A stretch of 64,000 nucleotides of DNA from assembly GCA_964586175.1 (NCBI GenBank), contig CAZPGL010000002.1, forward strand, positions 36,082-100,081. Reading direction: 5' to 3'. The stretch's first letter is position 1, and every line of letters starts with the position of its first letter. This document shows positions 5,169 to 61,021 of the stretch, piece by piece. The translations under genes and the position numbers were made by a program. Origin of the DNA: an uncultured Microthrixaceae bacterium. GTDB lineage: Bacteria > Actinomycetota > Acidimicrobiia > Acidimicrobiales > MedAcidi-G1. The notes under the pieces are model-generated. The model saw only the letters and a program-made list of their open reading frames with translations. It was not told the origin of the DNA and did no database searches.

Positions 5169-5645
5169 TCAGAACAGCGGACCGTCGGCGACAACGACCC
5201 CGTCGTCGTCGGCCCACAGGAACATGCCGGGCCGCACCTCCACACCGCCAACGCTGACCGGCACGTCGCGGTCACCGGCTCCGGCCTTGACGCTCTTGCG
5301 GGGGCAGGTACCCCGGGCCCGGATCCCGACGGCCTGGTCCCGTAGTTCGACGGCGTCGCGGACACAACCGTCGACCACGATGCCGGCCCAGCCGTTGGCG
5401 ACCGCCAGCTCACCCAGGTTGCCCCCCACCAGCGCACAACGGGTCGAACCGCCGCCGGCGACGAGGAGCACCCGGCCTTCGCCCGTCTCCTCCAGCGCCG
5501 CACGGACCAGCGTGTTGTCCTCGAATACCGACAAGGTCGTGACCGGTCCGGCGAACGCCGGGACCCCGCCGTAGGAGCCGAAACCGCCGCCGAGCACCTG
5601 CACGGCATCGCCGTGATCGTCGCACAGATCGGCGGTGGCCCACAT
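5169..5645 (-). CDS. rraA: RraA-family protein (RNase E regulator / HMG-CHA aldolase-like)
   Basis: 158 aa. Aligns by eye along its full length with E. coli RraA: TADLCD...FGSYGG...TLSVFEDN...GRVLLVAGGGSTRCALVGGNL...GIVVDGCVRD. Its ATG overlaps the upstream TGA stop (TGATG at 5647..5643). Confidence 0.85.
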   Translation of the reverse strand: MWATADLCDDHGDAVQVLGGGFGSYGGVPAFAGPVTTLSVFEDNTLVRAALEETGEGRVLLVAGGGSTRCALVGGNLGELAVANGWAGIVVDGCVRDAVELRDQAVGIRARGTCPRKSVKAGAGDRDVPVSVGGVEVRPGMFLWADDDGVVVADGPLF

Positions 5646-6031
5646 CAGCCGTCGGCCCCCAGAAACTCGTACAACGCGTCCTTGGGTCGACCGACCCGGG
5701 CGGACAGCGGCCCGTCACCACCCAGATCCCCCCGCACCAGCACCGGACGCTGCAGCAGGGCTTTGCGCCGGGCCAGCAGCTCGACCACGGCGTCGGCGTC
5801 GCCGACATAGTCGTCGGGATCCAGCTCCAGCTTCTTGAACTGCGAGTCCTTGCGCACAAGGTCCTCGACCGGCCCGTCGAGGCCGGCGGCGATGCGGGAC
5901 AGCAGGGCCGCGTCGGGCGGCTCCTTCATGTAGAGCACGACGTCGATCTGCACCCCCAGTTCCTCGGCGACCGCCAAGGCGTTCTTGGAAGCGTGTCAAT
6001 GCGGGTTGTGGAAGACGGTGATGTCGGCCAT
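5645..6031 (-). CDS. ArsC/Spx/YffB-family reductase with in-frame UGA at the catalytic Cys position (candidate selenoprotein, 128 aa)
   Basis: The track lists only 5645..5977, which starts at an internal TTG. The same frame continues upstream: ATG(6031..6029) A D I T V F H N P H TGA(5998..5996) H A S K N A L A V A E E L... GAGGGG lies 6 nt before the ATG. ArsC Arg positions are conserved (LVRKD, LLQRPV, VGRPKD). Confidence 0.7.
5962..5979 (-). other. SECIS-like hairpin downstream of UGA (7-bp stem, GGUC tetraloop)
   Basis: mRNA sequence CCUUGGC-GGUC-GCCGAGG. It starts 17 nt after the UGA at 5998..5996. The stem contains one G.U pair. Confidence 0.4.
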
Positions 6032-6055: not shown

Positions 6056-6361
6056 TCAAGCCCGGTGTTCGATGTGGGCACGCAGGTGGGTGCCGGCGGG
6101 GTCGGTCCAGCCCTTGGACCGGGCGTAGTCGACCATGGCCGTGAAGCCGGCCTCCCAGTCGTCGTCGGCCCGTACCCCGACCCAATGCCGGATCGCCCGC
6201 TCGGCGATCCAGAGGTAGCCGTTCTCGGCCCTGGTTCCTTCGCCCATGGTGGCGGCCAGACGGTCGGCGGCGCCGTCCCCGTCGGCTTCGACGTGGAACC
6301 CGGTGAACAGGTCGTAGTCGTCGACGGTCACGTCGCCGGCTGAACTCACCTTGATGATCAC
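6056..6361 (-). CDS. hypothetical protein (101 aa), first gene of the hyp-ArsC-RraA operon
   Basis: ORF with a GTG start and AGAGGGCG upstream. High GC3. It ends 24 nt upstream of the ArsC-like ATG. I do not recognise the family (…GYLWIAERAIRHWVGVRADDDWEAGF…). Confidence 0.55.
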   Translation of the reverse strand: MIIKVSSAGDVTVDDYDLFTGFHVEADGDGAADRLAATMGEGTRAENGYLWIAERAIRHWVGVRADDDWEAGFTAMVDYARSKGWTDPAGTHLRAHIEHRA

Positions 6362-11541: not shown

Positions 11542-12396
11542 ATGTTCGTGCTTCTGGCTGCACTCTCAGCCGTCGCCTACGGCGTCAGCGACCTCACCGG
11601 CGGTTTGGCCGTACAGCGCTCGGCGCGACCCGGGGCCTCCCTCACCTTCTCGTCGGTCGTCACCGCCGTCGGCGCCGTCTACACCGGTGTGTGGTTACTG
11701 GCCGTTCCGCCTGAGGCCGTCACCCGGACCGACCTCGGGTGGTCGCTGCTGGCCGGGCTCATCATGGCCGTCGCCCGTCCGGTCCTCTTCCAGGGCATGG
11801 CGGTCGGCCCCATCGCAGTGTTCGCTCCGGTGTACGGCCTGACCGGTATCACCCTGCCTGCATTGGCCGGACCGTTCATCGATCAGCACCTCGGCAACTG
11901 GGAGATGTTCGGGGTGCTGATGGCTGTTCCCGCGGTCGTATTGTTGTCGAGTCAGCGCCAACCAGCCCGGCCCGGCCTGATGATGCACGGCCCGGTGCTC
12001 GCCCGGGCGGTGTTCGTCGGCGCCTGCATCGGCGGCTCCGGGGTCTGCTTCTCGTTCGTTGACGAAGCCGCAGGGGTCTTCCCCGTGTTCACGACCATGA
12101 TCATCGGTTCGCTGGTCGTGACCACCGCCGCCGGTGTCACCGGTGTCGGACGTCCCACGCTTCGTCTCGCCGCGTCCGGCGCGCTCGTCGCCATCTCCCT
12201 GACCCTGGCCTTCGCCCTGGTCACCGCGGCGTACCAGCGGGGTTCAGCAGCTGTGGTGACCGCCGTGGTGTGCCTGGGCCCGGGGGTGTCGATGGTTCTG
12301 GCGTGGCGTTTCCTCGGCGAGCGGATCAGCCGGCTCCAGATGGTCGGCGGTGTTTTCGCCGTGTCGGCCGTGGCGGCCTTCGCTCTGGGTATCTGA
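11542..12396 (+). CDS. EamA/DMT-family membrane transporter
   Basis: 284 aa with about 10 hydrophobic segments. Typical EamA end: FLGERISRLQMVGGVFAVSAV. Confidence 0.8.
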   Translation: MFVLLAALSAVAYGVSDLTGGLAVQRSARPGASLTFSSVVTAVGAVYTGVWLLAVPPEAVTRTDLGWSLLAGLIMAVARPVLFQGMAVGPIAVFAPVYGLTGITLPALAGPFIDQHLGNWEMFGVLMAVPAVVLLSSQRQPARPGLMMHGPVLARAVFVGACIGGSGVCFSFVDEAAGVFPVFTTMIIGSLVVTTAAGVTGVGRPTLRLAASGALVAISLTLAFALVTAAYQRGSAAVVTAVVCLGPGVSMVLAWRFLGERISRLQMVGGVFAVSAVAAFALGI

Positions 12397-12428
12397 GCGT
12401 CACCGTCACCGGCGACTACGGTCGCCCC

Positions 12429-12779
12429 ATGACCACGACTGAACGCCTGCTGCTGTACCACAACCCCGGTTGAGGCAAGTCCCGAGGCGCCCTCGGCCTG
12501 CTCGAGGAGCGCGGCGTCGAGTTCGACGTCATCCAGTACCTGCAACAGCCCCTCACCCGCTCGGTCGTCGAGGGCTTCCTCGACATGCTCGACGGGCCAC
12601 CCGCCGACCTGGTCCGGGCCGACCCGGCCAAGGGCATCGACCCGACGGGCCTGGACGCGGCCGGCGTCGTCGACCTGCTGCTCGCCCACCCGCAGGCCAT
12701 GCAGCGGCCGGTGGCCGTGCACGGCGGCCGGGCCGTCATCGCCCGACCATCGGAGCTGGTCCTCGACCTGCTGGACTGA
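12429..12779 (+). CDS. ArsC-family reductase with in-frame UGA at the catalytic Cys position (candidate selenoprotein, 116 aa)
   Basis: Track ORF 12270..12473 ends ...MTTTERLLLYHNPG at the TGA 12471..12473. ORF 12585..12779 is in the same frame. Joined reading: MTTTERLLLYHNPG-U-GKSRGALGLLEERGVEFDVIQYLQQPL...LVRAD...AMQRPVAV...VIARPSELVLDLLD. Confidence 0.7.
12482..12496 (+). other. GC hairpin 8 nt downstream of the UGA (possible SECIS core)
   Basis: CCGAGG-CGC-CCUCGG. An alternative pairing is CCUCG(12491..12495)/CGAGG(12503..12507) with a 7-nt loop. No clear GU-containing apical loop. Confidence 0.3.
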
Positions 12780-12784
12780 CCGCC

Positions 12785-13333
12785 ATGTCCGGCGACCCGA
12801 CCCCGCCCCCGGCCCCCGAGGGTCCTCCTGACGCCGAGGAGCCGGTCGAGGTCGTCGATACCGGGCGACCCGCCCGATCGAATCCCCGGTTCTCGATCAT
12901 CCACGAGGCCGACGTTCCGTGGACCGAGGTGCGGGCCCAGCAGCACGGCGACCGGCGGGTATCGGTCCACGAGAAGTTCCTGGAGTGGTCCACCGACCGC
13001 ATGGTGGTGCTCGGCCACTACGACCCGGGCATGATCGTCGAACGCCACGGCCACCGCTCCGACCACCTGGTGTACGTCATGGAGGGCGCGGTCGACGTCG
13101 GCGGCCGCCACTGTCCGGCCGGCACCCTGATCGTGCTCGAGGAGGGAGCGGCGTTCGGCCCGCTCATCGCCGACGCCGACGAGGGATGCCTCATGTTCGA
13201 GACCTGGCTGGACGACCCGTTGCCGGTCCGGGCCGACGAGGCCGGCTTCCACGCCCTGCTGGACGAGCACGGGGCCGTCGAGCTGCCCAACCCGCCGTTC
13301 GAGCCGCCCCCCCACCTGTCCGGCCCCACCTGA
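12785..13333 (+). CDS. cupin-domain protein
   Basis: ORF 12470..13333 trimmed to the ATG at 12785. Cupin motifs: GMIVERHGHRSDHLVYVMEGAVDVGG...PAGTLIVLEEG. Confidence 0.65.
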   Translation: MSGDPTPPPAPEGPPDAEEPVEVVDTGRPARSNPRFSIIHEADVPWTEVRAQQHGDRRVSVHEKFLEWSTDRMVVLGHYDPGMIVERHGHRSDHLVYVMEGAVDVGGRHCPAGTLIVLEEGAAFGPLIADADEGCLMFETWLDDPLPVRADEAGFHALLDEHGAVELPNPPFEPPPHLSGPT

Positions 13334-49760: not shown

Positions 49761-50216
49761 TCAGCGCAGGAAGCGGCTGACGCTGTCGACCACGCACGCC
49801 GGGCGGTCGTGGCCTTCGATCTCGACGGTGATCCGGATGACCACCTGGACGCCACCGGCCACCTCGTCGACCTCCACGACCTCGGCCCCGGCCCGAACCC
49901 GCGCATCCACGGGCACCGCCGACGGGAACCGCACCTTGTTCACCCCGTAGTTGACGCCCATGGAAACGCCCCGCACCTCGAGGAGGGTGGGGAGCAGCAT
50001 GTTGGTGAGCGACAGGGTCAGATACCCGTGGGCGATGGTCGACCCGAACGGGCCGTCGGCGGCAGCCGCCGGGTCGACGTGGATCCACTGGTGGTCGCCG
50101 GTGGCGTCGGCGAACCGGTCGATGCGCTCCTGGTCGATCACCATCCAGTCGCTGTGGCCGAGATGGGTGCCGACGGCGTCGGCCAGAGCGTCGGGACTGT
50201 CGAAGACGGTGGGCAT
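49761..50216 (-). CDS. MaoC-like (R)-hydratase hotdog-fold protein
   Basis: ORF trimmed to the ATG at 50216. Motifs: ERIDRFADATGDHQWIHVDPAAAADGPFGSTIAHGYL. Confidence 0.85.
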   Translation of the reverse strand: MPTVFDSPDALADAVGTHLGHSDWMVIDQERIDRFADATGDHQWIHVDPAAAADGPFGSTIAHGYLTLSLTNMLLPTLLEVRGVSMGVNYGVNKVRFPSAVPVDARVRAGAEVVEVDEVAGGVQVVIRITVEIEGHDRPACVVDSVSRFLR

Positions 50217-50313
50217 GGCAGGCCTCGGGGTCGGGTCGGTCGTGGGTCCGGAGCCGACACTACGCTGCACGGGTCCACCGTCCCTCGTCCGAGCACCGGG
50301 AGCCCGACACGAC

Positions 50314-51219
50314 ATGGCAACCTCCGGCGGCACCAAGGCCGTCCTCGCCGCACTCTTCGCCAACCTCGGCATCGCCATCGCCAAGATGGTCGGCTTCATC
50401 ATCACCAGGTCGTCGTCGATGCTGGCCGAGAGCATCCACTCGGCGGCCGACACCGGCAACCAGGCTCTGCTGCTCCTCGGCGGTCGCCGCGCATCCCGTC
50501 CTGCGACACCGTCCCATCCCTTCGGACACGGGCGCGAGCGCTACTTCTGGTCGTTCGTGGTCGCCATCGTGCTGTTCACCCTGGGCGCCGGCTTCGCCCT
50601 GTACGAGGGCATCGAGAAGATCCGCCACCCCCACGCCGTCGACCATCTCGAATGGGCGGTCGGCATCCTTGCCATCGGCATCGTGCTCGAAGGCTTCTCG
50701 TTCCGGACGGCGATCGTCGAGGCCAACCGGGTGCGGGGCGACCTGTCATGGTCCCGGTTCGTGGTGCGGGCCAAGCAGCCCGAGCTGCCGGTGGTCCTGC
50801 TCGAGGACGCCGGGGCCATGCTGGGTCTGGTCATCGCCATGGCGGCCGTGGTCCTGAGTGACGTGACCGGCGAACCCCGCTGGGACGGGGTGGGCACCCT
50901 GACCATCGGGTTGCTCCTGGCCGCCATCGCCGTGGTCCTGGCCCGGGAGATGAAGAGCCTGCTGATCGGTGAGGCCGCAAATGCCAGCGACCGGGAGGCC
51001 ATCATCACCGCCATCACCGGGGTCGACGCCGTCGTGTCGCTGGCCGACCTGCGCACCCAACACCTCGGTCCCGACGACATCCTGGTGGGGGCCAAGGTCG
51101 TGCTGCGGGCCGACCTGAGCACGGCCGGCGTCGTGGCCGCCATCGACGAGATCGAGGCCGGTGTACGGGCCATGGTACCGACCGCCCACCCGATCTACGT
51201 CGAGCCGGTCGAGGGCTGA
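50314..51219 (+). CDS. cation diffusion facilitator (CDF) family transporter
   Basis: ORF 49951..51219 trimmed to the ATG at 50314. Motifs: SSSMLAESIHSAADTGNQ, HPFGHGRERYFWSF, and a C-terminal cytoplasmic domain. Confidence 0.85.
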   Translation: MATSGGTKAVLAALFANLGIAIAKMVGFIITRSSSMLAESIHSAADTGNQALLLLGGRRASRPATPSHPFGHGRERYFWSFVVAIVLFTLGAGFALYEGIEKIRHPHAVDHLEWAVGILAIGIVLEGFSFRTAIVEANRVRGDLSWSRFVVRAKQPELPVVLLEDAGAMLGLVIAMAAVVLSDVTGEPRWDGVGTLTIGLLLAAIAVVLAREMKSLLIGEAANASDREAIITAITGVDAVVSLADLRTQHLGPDDILVGAKVVLRADLSTAGVVAAIDEIEAGVRAMVPTAHPIYVEPVEG

Positions 51220-51902
51220 TGCGGCGGCTGGTGTCGCTGGCGGCCGCCGTGATCTGCGCGGTCGCCGCGTGGGCGTGGTTCGACGTGACGGTGGGCCGCC
51301 ATCGCCTGTGGGACGCCTACGCCGGCGGTCGCCGGGCCCGCCGCCGCTCGCAGCTGGCTGTCCACCCGGTGCAGGCTGGCGACACGGTGTTCCTCGGTGA
51401 CAGCCTCACCGAAGAAGGCTCTTGGGCGGCGGCGTTTCCCGGGCTGGCGGTCTGCAACCGGGGGGTCGGCGGGGACACCACCGCCGACGTCCTTGAGCGG
51501 CTCGACGATGCCGTGACCGGGCCGCCGGCCGCGGTGATCCTGTGCATCGGCACCAACGACCTCTGGTATTCGGTCGCCCACGCCCAGATTGTGCGCAACA
51601 CGGCCCGCATCTTGGACCACGTCATGGAATCCACACCGTCGACCCGGCTGGTGCTGCAGGCCGTGCCACCCCGACGGGACCGGTACCAGGCGGTGATCCC
51701 GGCCCTGAACACCGCGTTGCGCCGGGTGGCCGACGAGCGGGGCATCGAGTTCGTCGACCTGACCGAGGCCCTGTCGGGCCGCGACGGGCTGCTCGACGCC
51801 ACGCTGACCAACGACGGCCTCCACCTCAACGGCGACGGCTACCGCCACTGGTACAGGGTGCTGGAACCGGTGCTCGAACCGGTGCTGCACCCGACCCACT
51901 GA
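51219..51902 (+). CDS. SGNH/GDSL hydrolase
   Basis: 227 aa. FLGDSLTE (block I), GVGGDTT (II), IGTNDL (III), DGLHLNGDGY (V). Confidence 0.85.
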   Translation: MRRLVSLAAAVICAVAAWAWFDVTVGRHRLWDAYAGGRRARRRSQLAVHPVQAGDTVFLGDSLTEEGSWAAAFPGLAVCNRGVGGDTTADVLERLDDAVTGPPAAVILCIGTNDLWYSVAHAQIVRNTARILDHVMESTPSTRLVLQAVPPRRDRYQAVIPALNTALRRVADERGIEFVDLTEALSGRDGLLDATLTNDGLHLNGDGYRHWYRVLEPVLEPVLHPTH

Positions 51903-51946
51903 GGGCGGATCGTCGCAGCGGCCGGCCCCGCCCGTACGCTCGGACC

Positions 51947-54052
51947 ATGGCCGCGGACAGCACGGACCGCATCGAGTTGCCGATCGACGGCATGACGTGT
52001 GCCGGCTGCGTGGCGTCGGCCACCAGGGCCCTCGAAGGGGTAACGGGGGTCAGCGCCGCTGCCGTCAACCTGGCCACCCGATCGGCGATGGTCACCGTGG
52101 GCCCCGAGGTCACCGAAGCCGACCTGCGGCTGGCCGTCGAACAGGCCGGGTACACGGTGCCCGTCGGCGAACGGGAGGACGACCGGGCCTCGATCGACCG
52201 GCGACTCCGTGCCGCCGTCCCGCTCACCGTGCTGGCCATGGTGCTGGCCATGGTGCCGGCGGTCCCCGACGACCTGGCCCACTGGGGATCGGCGTTGGCC
52301 GCCCTTCCCGTGTATCTGTGGGCGGGCGCCGACATCCACGCCAGGGCGTTGTCCGGTCTGCGGCACCGGGTCACGTCGATGGACACCCTCATCACGATGG
52401 GAACCACGGCAGCCGTCGGCTGGTCGGTGGCCGGGCTGATGGTCGACGGGGTCGACGCCTACTTCGAGACCGCGGCGGTGATCATCACCCTCGTACTGGT
52501 GGGTCGCCGCCTCGAGGCCGGTGCCCGCCGGAGCTCCGGCAGCGCCCTACGGGCCCTCCTCGACCTGGCCCCGGCCACCGTCACACTGGCCGACGGCCGG
52601 GAGGTGCCCTTCGCCGAGCTCCGGGTGGGCGACCGGTTCATGGTCCGTCCAGGTGAGCGGCTGGCGGCCGACGGAACGGTCGTCGAGGGCTTCGGGTCGA
52701 TCAACGCGTCGATGCTGACCGGCGAACCGCTCCCGGTCGACGTGGTACCCGGCGACGAGGTGGCCGGCGGCACGGTGAACACCACCGGTGTGCTGACCGT
52801 CGAGGCCGACCGCACCGGCGACGACGCCACCGTCGTGCGTCTGGCCCGCATGGTGGCCGACGCCCAGGCCGGCCGGGCACCGGCCCAGAGGCTGGTCGAC
52901 CGGGTCTCGGCCGTGTTCGTCCCACTGGTCCTCGTCCTGGCCACCGCCACGTTGACCGGCCGACTACTCATCGGGCACACCGGTGACGACGCCGTCACCG
53001 CCGCGGTCACCGTGTTGATCATCGCCTGCCCGTGCGCCCTGGGGCTGGCCACACCGACCGCCCTGCAGGTGGGCACCGGTCGGGCGGCCCAACTCGGGGT
53101 GCTGCTCCGGTCGGCTGGCGTGCTCGAGACGACCCGCCGACTCACCACGGTCGTGGTCGACAAGACCGGCACGCTCACCAACGGCCGGATGTCGCTGGTC
53201 GACCTGGTGGCCGTCGACGACCACGACCGCTCCGAGACTCTCCGGCTGGCCGCCGCCGTCGAGGCCGGTTCCGAGCACCCGGTGGGCCGGGCGATCGCCG
53301 CCGCGGTCGACGACGCTCCCTGGGCCGTCGACGTGACTGCCGAACCGGGCTTCGGCATCTCGGGCACCGTCGACGGCCGGATGGTGGCTGTCGGGCGCCT
53401 CTCGGACGAGGCAGCCGCCCGACCCGGCATCGCGGACCTGGTCGGCCGAGGCCACACCATCGCCGAGGTCACCGTCGACGGCACCACCGTCGGGGCGGTC
53501 GCCGTCGGCGACACCGTCCGGCCGGAGGCCCGACAGGCCGTCGAGCGGCTCCACGCCCTGGGCCTCCATGTGGTGATGCTCACCGGCGACGGGCCCGACA
53601 CCGCCCAACGGGTGGCCGCCGAGGTCGGGATCGGCGAGGTGGTCGCCGGCGTGCGCCCCGACGGCAAGGTCCAGGCGGTGCTCGACCTACGCTCCCCCGA
53701 CGCCCATATCGCCATGGTGGGCGACGGACTCAACGACACGCCGGCCCTGGCCGCTGCCGATCTGGGCATCGCGATTGGAGGGGGCACCGACGCCGCCACC
53801 GAAGCCGCTGGCGTGGTGTTGCTGACCGACGACCTGCGAGCGGTGGCCGACGCCATCGCCCTGTCGCGACGCACCGTCGCCACCATCCGGACCAACCTGG
53901 TCTGGGCGTTCCTCTACAACGTGGCTGCCCTGCCGCTGGCCGTGGCCGGGGCCCTTGCCCCGCCGATCGCCGCCGGTGCCATGGTGGCGTCGTCGCTGTT
54001 CGTGGTGGGCAACTCGCTGCGCCTCCGGAGCTTCACCGGCAGCACCAACTGA
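51947..54052 (+). CDS. copA: heavy-metal P1B-type ATPase, Cu(I)-type (CopA-like)
   Basis: ORF 51542..54052 trimmed to the ATG at 51947. Motifs: GMTCAGCV (HMA domain), CPCALGLATP, DKTGTLT, GDGLNDTPAL. YN...M..SS in the last TM helices suggests Cu+/Ag+ specificity. Confidence 0.85.
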   Translation: MAADSTDRIELPIDGMTCAGCVASATRALEGVTGVSAAAVNLATRSAMVTVGPEVTEADLRLAVEQAGYTVPVGEREDDRASIDRRLRAAVPLTVLAMVLAMVPAVPDDLAHWGSALAALPVYLWAGADIHARALSGLRHRVTSMDTLITMGTTAAVGWSVAGLMVDGVDAYFETAAVIITLVLVGRRLEAGARRSSGSALRALLDLAPATVTLADGREVPFAELRVGDRFMVRPGERLAADGTVVEGFGSINASMLTGEPLPVDVVPGDEVAGGTVNTTGVLTVEADRTGDDATVVRLARMVADAQAGRAPAQRLVDRVSAVFVPLVLVLATATLTGRLLIGHTGDDAVTAAVTVLIIACPCALGLATPTALQVGTGRAAQLGVLLRSAGVLETTRRLTTVVVDKTGTLTNGRMSLVDLVAVDDHDRSETLRLAAAVEAGSEHPVGRAIAAAVDDAPWAVDVTAEPGFGISGTVDGRMVAVGRLSDEAAARPGIADLVGRGHTIAEVTVDGTTVGAVAVGDTVRPEARQAVERLHALGLHVVMLTGDGPDTAQRVAAEVGIGEVVAGVRPDGKVQAVLDLRSPDAHIAMVGDGLNDTPALAAADLGIAIGGGTDAATEAAGVVLLTDDLRAVADAIALSRRTVATIRTNLVWAFLYNVAALPLAVAGALAPPIAAGAMVASSLFVVGNSLRLRSFTGSTN

Positions 54053-59417: not shown

Positions 59418-60095
59418 TCAGGCGGTTCGGGGGAAGAGGGAGCGGACCACCACCACGGCCACCGCCACCCCCACCACCTGCATGATCACGAACATCGGGG
59501 CACAACCCGGATCGATGCCGGCGAAGGTGTCCGACATCGTGCGGGCCACGGTGACCGCCGGGTTGGCGAAGCTGGTCGACGACGTGAAGTAGTAGGCCCC
59601 GCCGATGTAGGCACCGACCACATACGGGATGCTGCCCAGCCGGGCGGTACGCACCAAGCTGAACACCACCAGCAGCAGTCCGACCGTGGCCACGACCTCC
59701 GCCAACCAGAGGTGGCCCCCCGACCGCTGGGTCGTCGACCACTCCACGGCCGGCAGGTCGAACATGAGGTTGGCCAGGATGGTTCCCAGCACGCCGCCGA
59801 CCACCTGGATGGCGACCATCGGCGCCACCTGGCGCCCGTCACGGTGGCCGAGGGCCCACGCGGCCAGGGTGACCGCCGGGTTGAAGTCGGCTGAGATCGT
59901 GCCGAAGATCGAGATGATGGCGACCAGCACCGCCGCAGTCGCCGCGGCGTTCTGGAACAACTGGAGGCCCACATCGCCGGGCGACAGGCGCTGGGCCATG
60001 ATCCCCGACCCGACGACCCCGACCAGCAGGAACATCGTGCCCAGGCCCTCGGCCAGCAGGGTGCGCCGGAAGCCCGGCGAGCTCAACGCGTTCAT
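59418..60095 (-). CDS. MIP/aquaporin-family channel
   Basis: ORF trimmed to the ATG at 60095 (MNALSSPGFRR...), which overlaps the upstream stop (ATGA). Two NPAVT motifs. Confidence 0.9.
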   Translation of the reverse strand: MNALSSPGFRRTLLAEGLGTMFLLVGVVGSGIMAQRLSPGDVGLQLFQNAAATAAVLVAIISIFGTISADFNPAVTLAAWALGHRDGRQVAPMVAIQVVGGVLGTILANLMFDLPAVEWSTTQRSGGHLWLAEVVATVGLLLVVFSLVRTARLGSIPYVVGAYIGGAYYFTSSTSFANPAVTVARTMSDTFAGIDPGCAPMFVIMQVVGVAVAVVVVRSLFPRTA

Positions 60096-61021
60096 CCGGT
60101 GAACAGATCCGGGTGACGGGCCTCTGCCATGCGACGCAGGCCGTCCCGCCAGTCGACGGCACACGGGCCTATCAGCCCGTGCAGGCGGGTGACGTCGACG
60201 GCCCGGCTGGACACGCCGTCCGGCGTGGCCGCGATGTCGACGTCGAGTCCGCAGACCTCAGCCAGGTGGCTGACGTACGTCGTCACCTCCACCGGGTGGT
60301 TGCCGGCCCAGTTGACGACGGTCGCCGGCACCGACGCCACGTCCAGCAGCGGTCCGACCTGGGCGTTGATGTCGTCTTGGTGGATCAGGTTGAACCACGA
60401 CGGTTGGTCGTGGACCGGAACCGCCATACCGGCCCTCATCATGTCCAGTTGGTAGGCGGGCAGGCCGCCGTTGGGCCCGTACGACATGTTCATCCGGGCG
60501 ATGACCGTCGGCAATTCCAGGCTGCGGGCCATCGTCCGGGCCACCGCCTCCTGGGCGTTCTTGGCGACCGAGTACGTCGGCGCATACGTCTGGGCGTGCT
60601 CACCCAGCGGGTCGTCCTCGTGCAACAGGTGTTCAGGGTCGTCGTTGTGGCGGTACACGGCGCTCGACGACATCACCAGCACCGACTCGGCCTCGGCGAA
60701 GCGGGCCATCACCAGCCCGGTGCCCTCGGCGTTGATGCGCAGAGCCTGTTCGAAGTCGTCGCCGACGATGTAGGCGGCCAGGTGCAGCACGTGGTCGAAC
60801 CGGTCCGGCAGGGCCGACCAGTCCGGGTCGGCCAGATCCACGGCAGCGGTCCGGCATCCCGTGGCCTCGACCCGCTCCCGGGCCGCCGGGTCGCCGAACC
60901 GGGCGATCCCCCACACCTCGTTGTCGGCGACCAGCGACTCGACGATCGGGAACGCGATCTGGCCGGCCGGCCCGGTGACGAGGATCCGACGGTCGGCGAG
61001 CCCGGCCGCCGGATCAGCCAT
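60092..61021 (-). CDS. NAD-dependent epimerase/dehydratase family protein
   Basis: 309 aa. RILVTGPAGQIAFPIV is the Rossmann motif. YSVAKNAQE is the YxxxK motif. Confidence 0.8.
   Translation of the reverse strand: MADPAAGLADRRILVTGPAGQIAFPIVESLVADNEVWGIARFGDPAARERVEATGCRTAAVDLADPDWSALPDRFDHVLHLAAYIVGDDFEQALRINAEGTGLVMARFAEAESVLVMSSSAVYRHNDDPEHLLHEDDPLGEHAQTYAPTYSVAKNAQEAVARTMARSLELPTVIARMNMSYGPNGGLPAYQLDMMRAGMAVPVHDQPSWFNLIHQDDINAQVGPLLDVASVPATVVNWAGNHPVEVTTYVSHLAEVCGLDVDIAATPDGVSSRAVDVTRLHGLIGPCAVDWRDGLRRMAEARHPDLFTG

Follow-up and report, generated by a model that had tools for sequence, protein, structure and literature searches.

A second ArsC-family gene in a marine Acidimicrobiia genome with a probable selenocysteine codon at its catalytic cysteine position

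What does a stop codon mean when it stands where an enzyme should carry its catalytic cysteine? The question is raised by a 64,000-nucleotide (64-kb) stretch of contig CAZPGL010000002.1 from an uncultured Microthrixaceae bacterium (the window, below), in which two ArsC-family genes, called gene 1 and gene 2 here, each have a TGA at this codon. The original prediction held that two diverged paralogs about 6.4 kb apart with TGA in the same column are very hard to explain by chance inactivation. The genes do lie 6.47 kb apart, on opposite strands, and are 35% identical (BLASTP). Chance is indeed untenable, since the TGA is present in all clade members, purifying selection acts on both sides of it, and an RNA element is linked to it; the explanation, however, was already known in the form of a predicted selenoprotein family. 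Our reading, to which we assign a probability of about 0.85, is that gene 2 encodes a 116-residue ArsC-family oxidoreductase of the glutaredoxin-coupled R773 type with a selenocysteine (Sec) nucleophile inserted at the UGA 12471..12473, and that gene 1, its long-diverged paralog, is also a Sec gene and has a conventional selenocysteine insertion sequence (SECIS) of a single hairpin. Comparison of sequences supports Sec, and not an inactivating mutation, at the UGA in the Cys column of gene 2, because the UGA is conserved, its flanks are in frame and under purifying selection, TGC takes its place outside the clade, and the UGA-linked RNA element is constrained.

Frame and active site of gene 2

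The gene and its internal stop are placed as follows.

12429..12779, + strand: gene 2, coding sequence of the ArsC family (arsenate-reductase-like); 116 codons, one of them an in-frame UGA; motif HNPG-U-GKS (UxxS)
12471..12473, + strand: in-frame TGA, putative Sec codon, at the column of the catalytic Cys12 of R773 ArsC

The translation reads MTTTERLLLYHNPG-stop-GKSRGALGLLEERGVEFDVIQYLQQPL...IARPSELVLDLLD-stop (over a longer stretch, MTTTERLLLYHNPG-stop-GKSRGALGLLEERGVEFDV...IARPSELVLDLLD-stop), and the TGA 12471..12473 is the sole internal stop. The open reading frames (ORFs) 12270..12473 and 12585..12779 share this frame, as had been proposed when they were joined into one gene. With Cys at the stop, the product matches Pfam ArsC (PF03960) above the cut-off with E=2e-6. 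Residues 7-115 align with solved arsenate reductases (2MU0, E=2e-16; R773 ArsC 1I9D, E=4e-12), and in the structure alignments the stop falls on the catalytic Cys of the HNPxC motif. The full-length likeness to E. coli ArsC, with the stop at the catalytic Cys, thus holds beyond an alignment by eye. The equivalents of the catalytic residues Arg60, Arg94, and Arg107 are found in the alignment at LVR(63)AD, MQR(93)P, and IAR(106)PSE; pairwise BLAST is ambiguous near Arg60 because of a 4-residue deletion. The best NCBIfam model for gene 2 is TIGR00014 arsC with 81.0 bits, and the cut-off of 106.05 is not reached. An assignment to the Spx/MgsR regulators (TIGR01617) was rejected; with a cut-off of 75.05 bits, the two proteins scored 30.7 and 35.1, and the motif is UxxS, not CxxC.

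The nearest database relatives of gene 2 are gene calls that start just past the UGA (P0001, 95 aa; P0021, 92 aa; P0078, 64 aa). The DNA upstream of these shortened calls has the same in-frame TGA after M-S-D-R-L-L-L-Y-H-N-P-x, on contigs of 55-57% GC. Full-length relatives at approximately 60% identity read HNPxCGKSRGA, and 111 full-length Cys homologs were collected. We compared the codon across loci in a contig collection with one genome per species. It is TGA in 16 species-level loci, 15 of which are labelled Acidimicrobiia, Microthrix, or Actinomycetota, and TGC in 15 loci from other phyla (Binatia, Deltaproteobacteria, Myxococcota, and others). All 15 Actinomycetota species-representative metagenome-assembled genomes (MAGs) that carry gene 2 keep the TGA, at 57-79% protein identity to the window. 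Syntenic ortholog loci keep it in both genes, with the gene 1 ortholog a few kb from the gene 2 ortholog. We found no further stops or frameshifts in members of the gene 2 clade; a scatter of nonsense mutations at random positions, which had been named as a sign of decay, is not what the orthologs show, as the TGA sits at one codon throughout. When metagenome DNA was scanned with a pattern that fixes nothing but HNPxU-GKSRGA, 118 stretches came up, and the distinct metagenome sequences with the TGA context number 91.

A codon-by-codon table of 18 orthologs showed abundant synonymous change with conserved amino acids at codons -8 to -1 and +1 to +4. Because synonymous change is plentiful while the amino acids are conserved, both flanks of the TGA must be translated in one frame. 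Purifying selection in this frame covers 12-14 codons upstream and approximately 100 codons downstream of the TGA.

The related contigs are labelled as Acidimicrobiales, Acidimicrobiaceae, or 'Candidatus Microthrix sp. UBA2131/UBA2983' MAGs. Orthologs are found, for example, in the MAGs DEAL01 (UBA2983), DCXR01 (UBA2131), JAPKBH01 (ANT-33), and JAAZXY01. The RraA protein of the window recurs in identical form on numerous contigs from marine metagenomes, the largest of them in the 0.2-1 Mb class. A Sec-type homolog of gene 2 with both of the downstream hairpins described below is also present on CAYWPF010000075.1 (L028), labelled an Enterobacteriaceae MAG of 52% GC; this looks like a binning error, or else a transferred gene.

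RNA past the UGA in the two paralogs

Folding of the 18 orthologs gave two adjacent hairpins past the UGA of gene 2, set off from it by a spacer.

12474..12486, + strand: spacer, 13 nucleotides (nt), codons G-K-S-R; synonymous variation is free, hence no RNA-level constraint
12487..12512, + strand: hairpin 1, GCGCCCUCGG-CCUGC-UCGAGG-A-GCGC; -14.9 kcal/mol; nt 17-42 from the U of the UGA
12513..12530, + strand: hairpin 2, GGCGUCG-AGUU-CGACGUC; 7-bp stem; -9.3 kcal/mol; loop 12520..12523; nt 43-60 from the U of the UGA

At codons +1 to +4, minor codons occur in 12, 3, 5, and 11 of the 18 orthologs. The mRNA shows nucleotide-level constraint from approximately 16 to 60 nt past the UGA; minor-codon cells make up 7.5% in codons 5-19 and 39% in other conserved codons (p=1.9e-6), and third codon positions across hairpin 2 are nearly invariant. 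The site of hairpin 1 always folds, but its sequence, loop, and pairing register vary by subfamily. Hairpin 2 is the conserved element. Its core, GUCG-NGUN-CGAC, is at nt 46-57 in 75 of 76 distinct Sec-type 63-nt downstream sequences, with the loop AGUU in 67 of the 75 and CGUG in the other 8. Over the 91 family members, every loop is AGUU or CGUG. The swap from AGUU to CGUG changes the peptide from VEFD to VACD, and both the stem and the GU of the loop are kept. When RNAalifold was run on the 91 distinct 105-nt sequences, it retained hairpin 2 alone and dropped hairpin 1.

At the DNA level, hairpin 2 is present in 75/76 Sec forms and in 1/15 Cys forms (Fisher p=2e-14), and the minimum free energy (MFE) of its region is -9.0 kcal/mol in the former and -4.4 in the latter (p=2e-9). 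The VEFD peptide is found in 0/111 Cys-type proteins. The genome scan recovered Sec forms through the peptide EER[NG]VEFD, a possible bias towards hairpin 2, for which the metagenome DNA scan on the UGA context corrects. Counting both strands of the 64-kb window, an NGUN tetraloop caps a stem of 7 bp or more at only 20 sites; two of these hairpins follow the ArsC TGAs, and only 0.8% of all TGA triplets in the window have such an NGUN loop 16-50 nt downstream.

These results change what had been proposed for the RNA. The GC hairpin CCGAGG-CGC-CCUCGG exists at 12482..12496 as described (-8.1 kcal/mol), but the MFE fold is a different one, with which it competes, and orthologs do not conserve it, since the Arg codon that holds its 5' arm varies freely. 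The alternative downstream fold corresponds to 12487..12512; the main conserved element is the second hairpin, 12513..12530. The expectation of a conserved structure past the UGA in orthologs is borne out by hairpin 2 in the Sec forms. When the downstream structures of the two paralogs were compared, as had been suggested, each proved to have a UGA-linked NGUN hairpin, but the architectures differ, with a single hairpin in gene 1 and two in gene 2.

A few sequences depart from this pattern. The Cys-type (TGC) homolog of a Myxococcota MAG (JANQFA010000014.1; L048:7414) has the exact hairpin 2 sequence GGCGUCGAGUUCGAC and the peptide GVEFD; either reversion from Sec to Cys or a pre-adapted ancestral state might account for it. 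V-A-C-D stands at the hairpin 2 position in 30/111 Cys-type proteins, and one such locus (L025) reads GUCG-CCUG-CGAC, in which the stem is present and the GU of the loop is missing. In the Sec-type VACD subgroup the GCG codon (loop CGUG) is found in 8/8 distinct sequences. The VACD of the Cys homologs suggests, from the sequences, a pre-SECIS that would ease Cys-to-Sec switches. The sole Sec-context sequence without hairpin 2 (L123, Ga0209402_10229924) diverges completely from all relatives past nt 38; the probable explanation is a chimeric assembly or a disrupted copy.

Gene 1 offers a comparison within the same genome.

5645..6031, - strand: gene 1, paralogous ArsC-family coding sequence; 128 codons; in-frame TGA 5998..5996 in the Cys12 column; motif HNPH-U-HAS
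5962..5979, - strand: gene 1 SECIS upper hairpin, CCUUGGC-GGUC-GCCGAGG; 7 bp; -10.7 kcal/mol; loop 5972..5969, starting 23 nt past the UGA

It reads MADITVFHNPH-stop-HASKNALAVAEELG... from the ATG at 6031 to the stop at 5647..5645. The product matches PF03960, keeps the catalytic Arg equivalents, and scores 71.3 bits to TIGR00014 (cut-off 106.05). Its TGA is kept in 11 other loci and in 18 distinct sequences. The upper hairpin is lengthened by a lower stem that pairs approximately 5990..5984 with 5959..5953. The GGUC loop is invariant (18/18 distinct sequences), and the only changes in the stem are compensatory; two were seen (G-C to A-U, and U-A to C-G). Synonymous variation is suppressed across the hairpin region (9.5% minor-codon cells vs 36%, p=4e-4). 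The peptide ALAVAE, which the hairpin encodes, occurs in 11/11 UGA forms and 0/11 Cys forms. Each paralog is approximately 60% identical to Cys proteins, whereas the two are approximately 35% identical to each other, and the SECIS designs differ; a separate origin of the two UGAs is therefore plausible from the sequences, suggested and not proven.

Public calls of gene 1 relatives read HNPH-W-GSS in P0186, P0202, P0212, P0214, P0216, P0219-P0222, P0227, and P0231. It looks as if gene finders translated these contigs with code 4 (UGA=Trp), and probable Sec sites are therefore stored as Trp. Other gene 1 relatives are shortened to 93-111 aa in public calls. Between gene 1 and an enoyl-CoA hydratase gene lies an ORF at 6056..6361 (- strand, 101 aa) with no Pfam match. 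Near-identical metagenome contigs (L050-L053) have this ORF among their gene calls; lower-GC relatives lack it, and in them gene 1 directly adjoins a P-II gene.

Probable selenocysteine insertion and the competing readings

In bacterial Sec decoding, SelB binds an apical loop that contains GU and lies just outside the mRNA entrance of the ribosome. The E. coli fdhF SECIS, which we checked against 5,419 E. coli genomes, forms a hairpin whose GGUC loop covers nt 22-25, counted from the U of the UGA; in gene 1 the loop occupies nt 27-30, and in gene 2, where a 26-nt hairpin is interposed, nt 50-53. The window genes resemble fdhF in having a hairpin just past the UGA, within the coding sequence, and a GU tetraloop, which is the identical GGUC in gene 1 and AGUU in hairpin 2 of gene 2. 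Because this tetraloop matches the GGUC of gene 1 and of fdhF, we infer that SelB with Sec-tRNA(Sec) would bind hairpin 2 (12513..12530) and deliver Sec at the UGA. Hairpin 1 (12487..12512) would fold away the 26 nt between the spacer and hairpin 2, and the SelB site, 39 nt downstream in the linear sequence, would thereby come to lie approximately 13 nt from the UGA at the ribosomal mRNA entrance. The distance from the UGA to the base of the hairpin is approximately 11 nt in E. coli and 16 nt in gene 1, and the 13 nt of folded gene 2 is comparable. In the enzyme, the selenolate would replace the thiolate of Cys12 and attack arsenate, or a related oxyanion or disulfide, held by the equivalents of Arg60, Arg94, and Arg107; a thiol or glutaredoxin-type partner would then resolve the adduct.

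Given Sec insertion, we lean towards hairpin 2 as the SelB site and hairpin 1 as a structured spacer, an arrangement modelled on the folds and distances above. The difficulty lies in the spacing. The model of the bacterial SECIS (bSECIS), as stated in PMC13188914, has a loop of 3-9 nt with G in its first two positions, a stem of 4-16 bp, 16-37 nt from the UGA to the loop, and an MFE of -7.5 kcal/mol or lower. The gene 1 hairpin agrees with it at every point (7 bp, GGUC, 23 nt, -10.7). In gene 2, hairpin 1 fits the spacing, with its loop 23 nt past the UGA, and hairpin 2 fits in loop, stem, and energy but has its loop 46 nt away. The true SelB-binding SECIS could then be hairpin 1, with hairpin 2 as an accessory or stabilizing element that, for example, stacks on hairpin 1 or slows the ribosome. 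The loop of hairpin 1 is within 16-37 nt, at the same position as that of gene 1; hairpin 1 is also the more stable of the two, its codons show reduced synonymous change within the Acidimicrobiia clade, and in the window its loop would begin with G if the closing G-U pair opened. We nevertheless regard this assignment as rather unlikely, as hairpin 1 is variable in sequence, loop, and register. A G in the first two loop positions is seen in only 19/91 members and missing in 72/91, and G[GU] is found in 2/91; moreover, hairpin 1-like folds occur in Cys homologs, and the RNAalifold consensus keeps hairpin 2 only. With hairpin 2 as the SelB site, a more general proposal can be put forward tentatively, as something that falls short of even odds: the gene 2 family would have a two-part SECIS, with hairpin 1 as the spacer and hairpin 2 as the apex (loop 46 nt off), and the stem of this apex, already there in many Cys homologs (V-A-C-D, encoded GUCG....CGAC), would have been a 'pre-SECIS' that allowed repeated Cys-to-Sec switches.

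The other alternatives concern the UGA itself. It might be decoded as Cys or Trp by a near-cognate or specialized tRNA (e.g., a tRNA(Cys) that has a UCA anticodon and depends on SelB) or under code 4, and there would be no selenoprotein. Some gene callers do put W at the site in gene 1 relatives (HNPHWGSS...). Yet TGA terminates approximately 41 of the 46 Pfam-supported genes in the window, gene 2 included, so we are dealing with site-specific recoding and not with a changed genetic code; scans of the window for other genes with an in-frame TGA gave only ordinary gene junctions. Trp as the nucleophile would be inactive, the UGA-linked hairpins bear the GU tetraloop of a SelB site (with the gene 1 loop identical to that of E. 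coli fdhF), and the ArsC family is a standard Cys/Sec pair. We consider Cys or Trp decoding improbable. More improbable still is that the short annotated products are real, that is, that translation starts past the TGA and the 14 codons upstream are untranslated or a separate leader. Automatic pipelines do call such forms of 64-95 aa (P0001, P0021, P0078, and the ORF 12585..12779), but the upstream peptide LLLYHNP, which bears the active-site motif, is conserved in frame with synonymous substitutions; the called starts differ by lineage (L..., M...), and a product lacking the N-terminal strand and the nucleophile would have no catalytic centre. For two decaying pseudogenes hit by chance nonsense mutations, the presence of a stop codon is all that speaks, and the idea is scarcely credible against the same TGA in all clade members at 57-79% identity, free of other stops or frameshifts, with purifying selection on both sides and a conserved, linked RNA element. 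Judged on these sequence comparisons, the pseudogene and downstream-start readings appear effectively excluded.

Several observations weigh against Sec insertion in a working arsenate reductase. Neither protein reaches the equivalog cut-off of TIGR00014, and a Pfam survey of approximately 60 window ORFs found no ars operon (arsR, arsB/ACR3, arsA/D) nearby; arsenate is therefore a putative substrate, and the enzyme presumably works by analogy with R773 ArsC. No single hairpin of gene 2 agrees with all the bSECIS criteria across the family, and Cys-type homologs also have hairpin 1-like folds. Thermodynamic z-scores against dinucleotide shuffles are unremarkable (-0.95 and -0.36) in the 71% GC context, and covariation statistics (18 and 12 orthologs) are not significant. 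The weak formal covariation follows from stems that barely vary, and raw folding energy is uninformative because Cys-type homologs fold equally stably across the same 63 nt. The case for RNA constraint therefore rests on four findings: synonymous suppression, the difference between Sec and Cys forms, a small number of compensatory changes, and the AGUU-to-CGUG swap in the loop. The Sec decoding machinery of the host is assumed here, not shown. selA, selB, selD, and tRNA-Sec were absent from the 64-kb window (the Pfam survey of approximately 60 ORFs, and ARAGORN), and no Sec machinery was found in 1.38 Mb of related loci; its absence there is as expected, because the sample is mostly one syntenic region. 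ARAGORN gave no tRNA-Sec in any related locus either, and Rfam at gathering thresholds gave only tRNA-Ala in the window. A tblastn search with approximate E. coli SelA/SelD queries returned nothing in the window or in 172 loci, a weak test given that the loci are mostly one syntenic region. In the literature we found no experimental selenium incorporation for the ArsC UxxS family.

Known selenoproteins and the genomic surroundings

In 2005, Zhang, Fomenko & Gladyshev predicted an arsenate reductase with Sec (COG1393/pfam03960) from Sargasso Sea data; they had 14 sequences and drew a SECIS (PMC1088965). In the Global Ocean Sampling (GOS) study of 2008, 'ArsC 1, UxxS' was listed with 77 sequences of the Sec type and 784 homologs of the Cys type (Zhang & Gladyshev, PMC2398784), and the protein is also in a 2022 review (PMC9312934). 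Zhang & Gladyshev defined the ArsC selenoprotein family by UxxS and pfam03960/COG1393; PF03960 is found in both window genes, with U-G-K-S in gene 2 and U-H-A-S in gene 1. As both are UxxS, the two genes are members of the predicted 'ArsC, UxxS' selenoprotein family, and the family itself is already known. They share with it the Pfam domain, the UxxS motif, the occurrence in marine metagenomes, abundant Cys homologs, and a stem-loop past the UGA. The published work on this family gives no organism, no co-resident pair of paralogs, and a generic SECIS, whereas here the genes are syntenic paralogs of marine Acidimicrobiia, and hairpin 2 is outside the spacing range.

Compared with R773 ArsC (PDB 1I9D, 1JZW), gene 2 aligns over the full length at 33% identity and has the HNPxC-type loop and the equivalents of Arg60, Arg94, and Arg107. 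It differs in having a Sec codon for Cys12, approximately 25 fewer C-terminal residues, a TIGR00014 score below the cut-off, and no ars operon. Other Sec-containing relatives are the 'Arsenate reductase 2 / ArsC-like' UxxC proteins (cd03032, Spx-like) and deltaproteobacterial ArsC-like selenoproteins (PMC1794560, PMC2398784). The window genes have in common with these the ArsC/Spx superfamily and Sec as the first residue of the redox motif. The UxxC group, however, has a resolving Cys and belongs to a Spx/YffB-like branch, whereas the window genes are UxxS with TIGR00014 arsC as the best model.

On selenocysteine in Acidimicrobiales, Microthrix, or Ilumatobacter, our literature search turned up only a preprint on Actinomarina (10.64898/2026.04.03.716425). 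It describes selA, selB, selC, selD, and approximately five predicted selenoproteins per genome in the Actinomarinales (class Acidimicrobiia). These bacteria are marine and of the same class as the window lineage, but they are of another order, with genomes of approximately 1.1 Mb, and ArsC is not named among their selenoproteins.

A Sec-containing ArsC itself is not new and opens no long-standing question. What is modestly new, as a side result, is the geometry of the gene 2 SECIS, in which the conserved loop lies 46 nt from the UGA against the 16-37 nt consensus. The two-hairpin arrangement, if functional, would be a class of SECIS that is mis-assigned by the 16-37 nt spacing model behind SECIS-based gene finders, and a concrete case of RNA folding that meets a distance requirement. 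Taken together, our results indicate the use of Sec in marine Acidimicrobiales/Microthrix-like lineages, in which the two Sec paralogs are kept in synteny. Automatic pipelines shorten ArsC Sec genes to 64-110 aa or render the UGA as Trp; an abundant marine Acidimicrobiia lineage is therefore without two redox or arsenic-detoxification enzymes in public annotation.

The window, at 71% GC, has ordinary chromosomal content, including dxs, topoisomerase subunits, leuA/ilvE/leuB, molybdenum cofactor (Moco) biosynthesis, and several genes of CoA metabolism. Gene 2 stands in a same-strand run: an EamA transporter (11542..12396, + strand), a 32-nt gap, gene 2, a 5-nt gap, a ChrR-type cupin (12785..13333, + strand), and an AMP-dependent ligase. 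RsgA is also among its neighbours in the window. In relatives, gene 2 is alone between DUF6356 and RsgA. Since the context differs between the window and the relatives, it is lineage-specific and not arsenic-related. At 37-47 kb from gene 2 are a cation-efflux (CDF) protein (49951..51219, + strand), an HMA-domain P-type ATPase (51497..54052, + strand), and a MIP-family channel (59421..60257, - strand), which is potentially an arsenite/glycerol channel. At 12329..12348 (+ strand), inside the 3' end of the EamA gene and approximately 80 nt upstream of the gene 2 start, a stem resembling a terminator precedes a run of T; it is the sole such site in 12200..13000.

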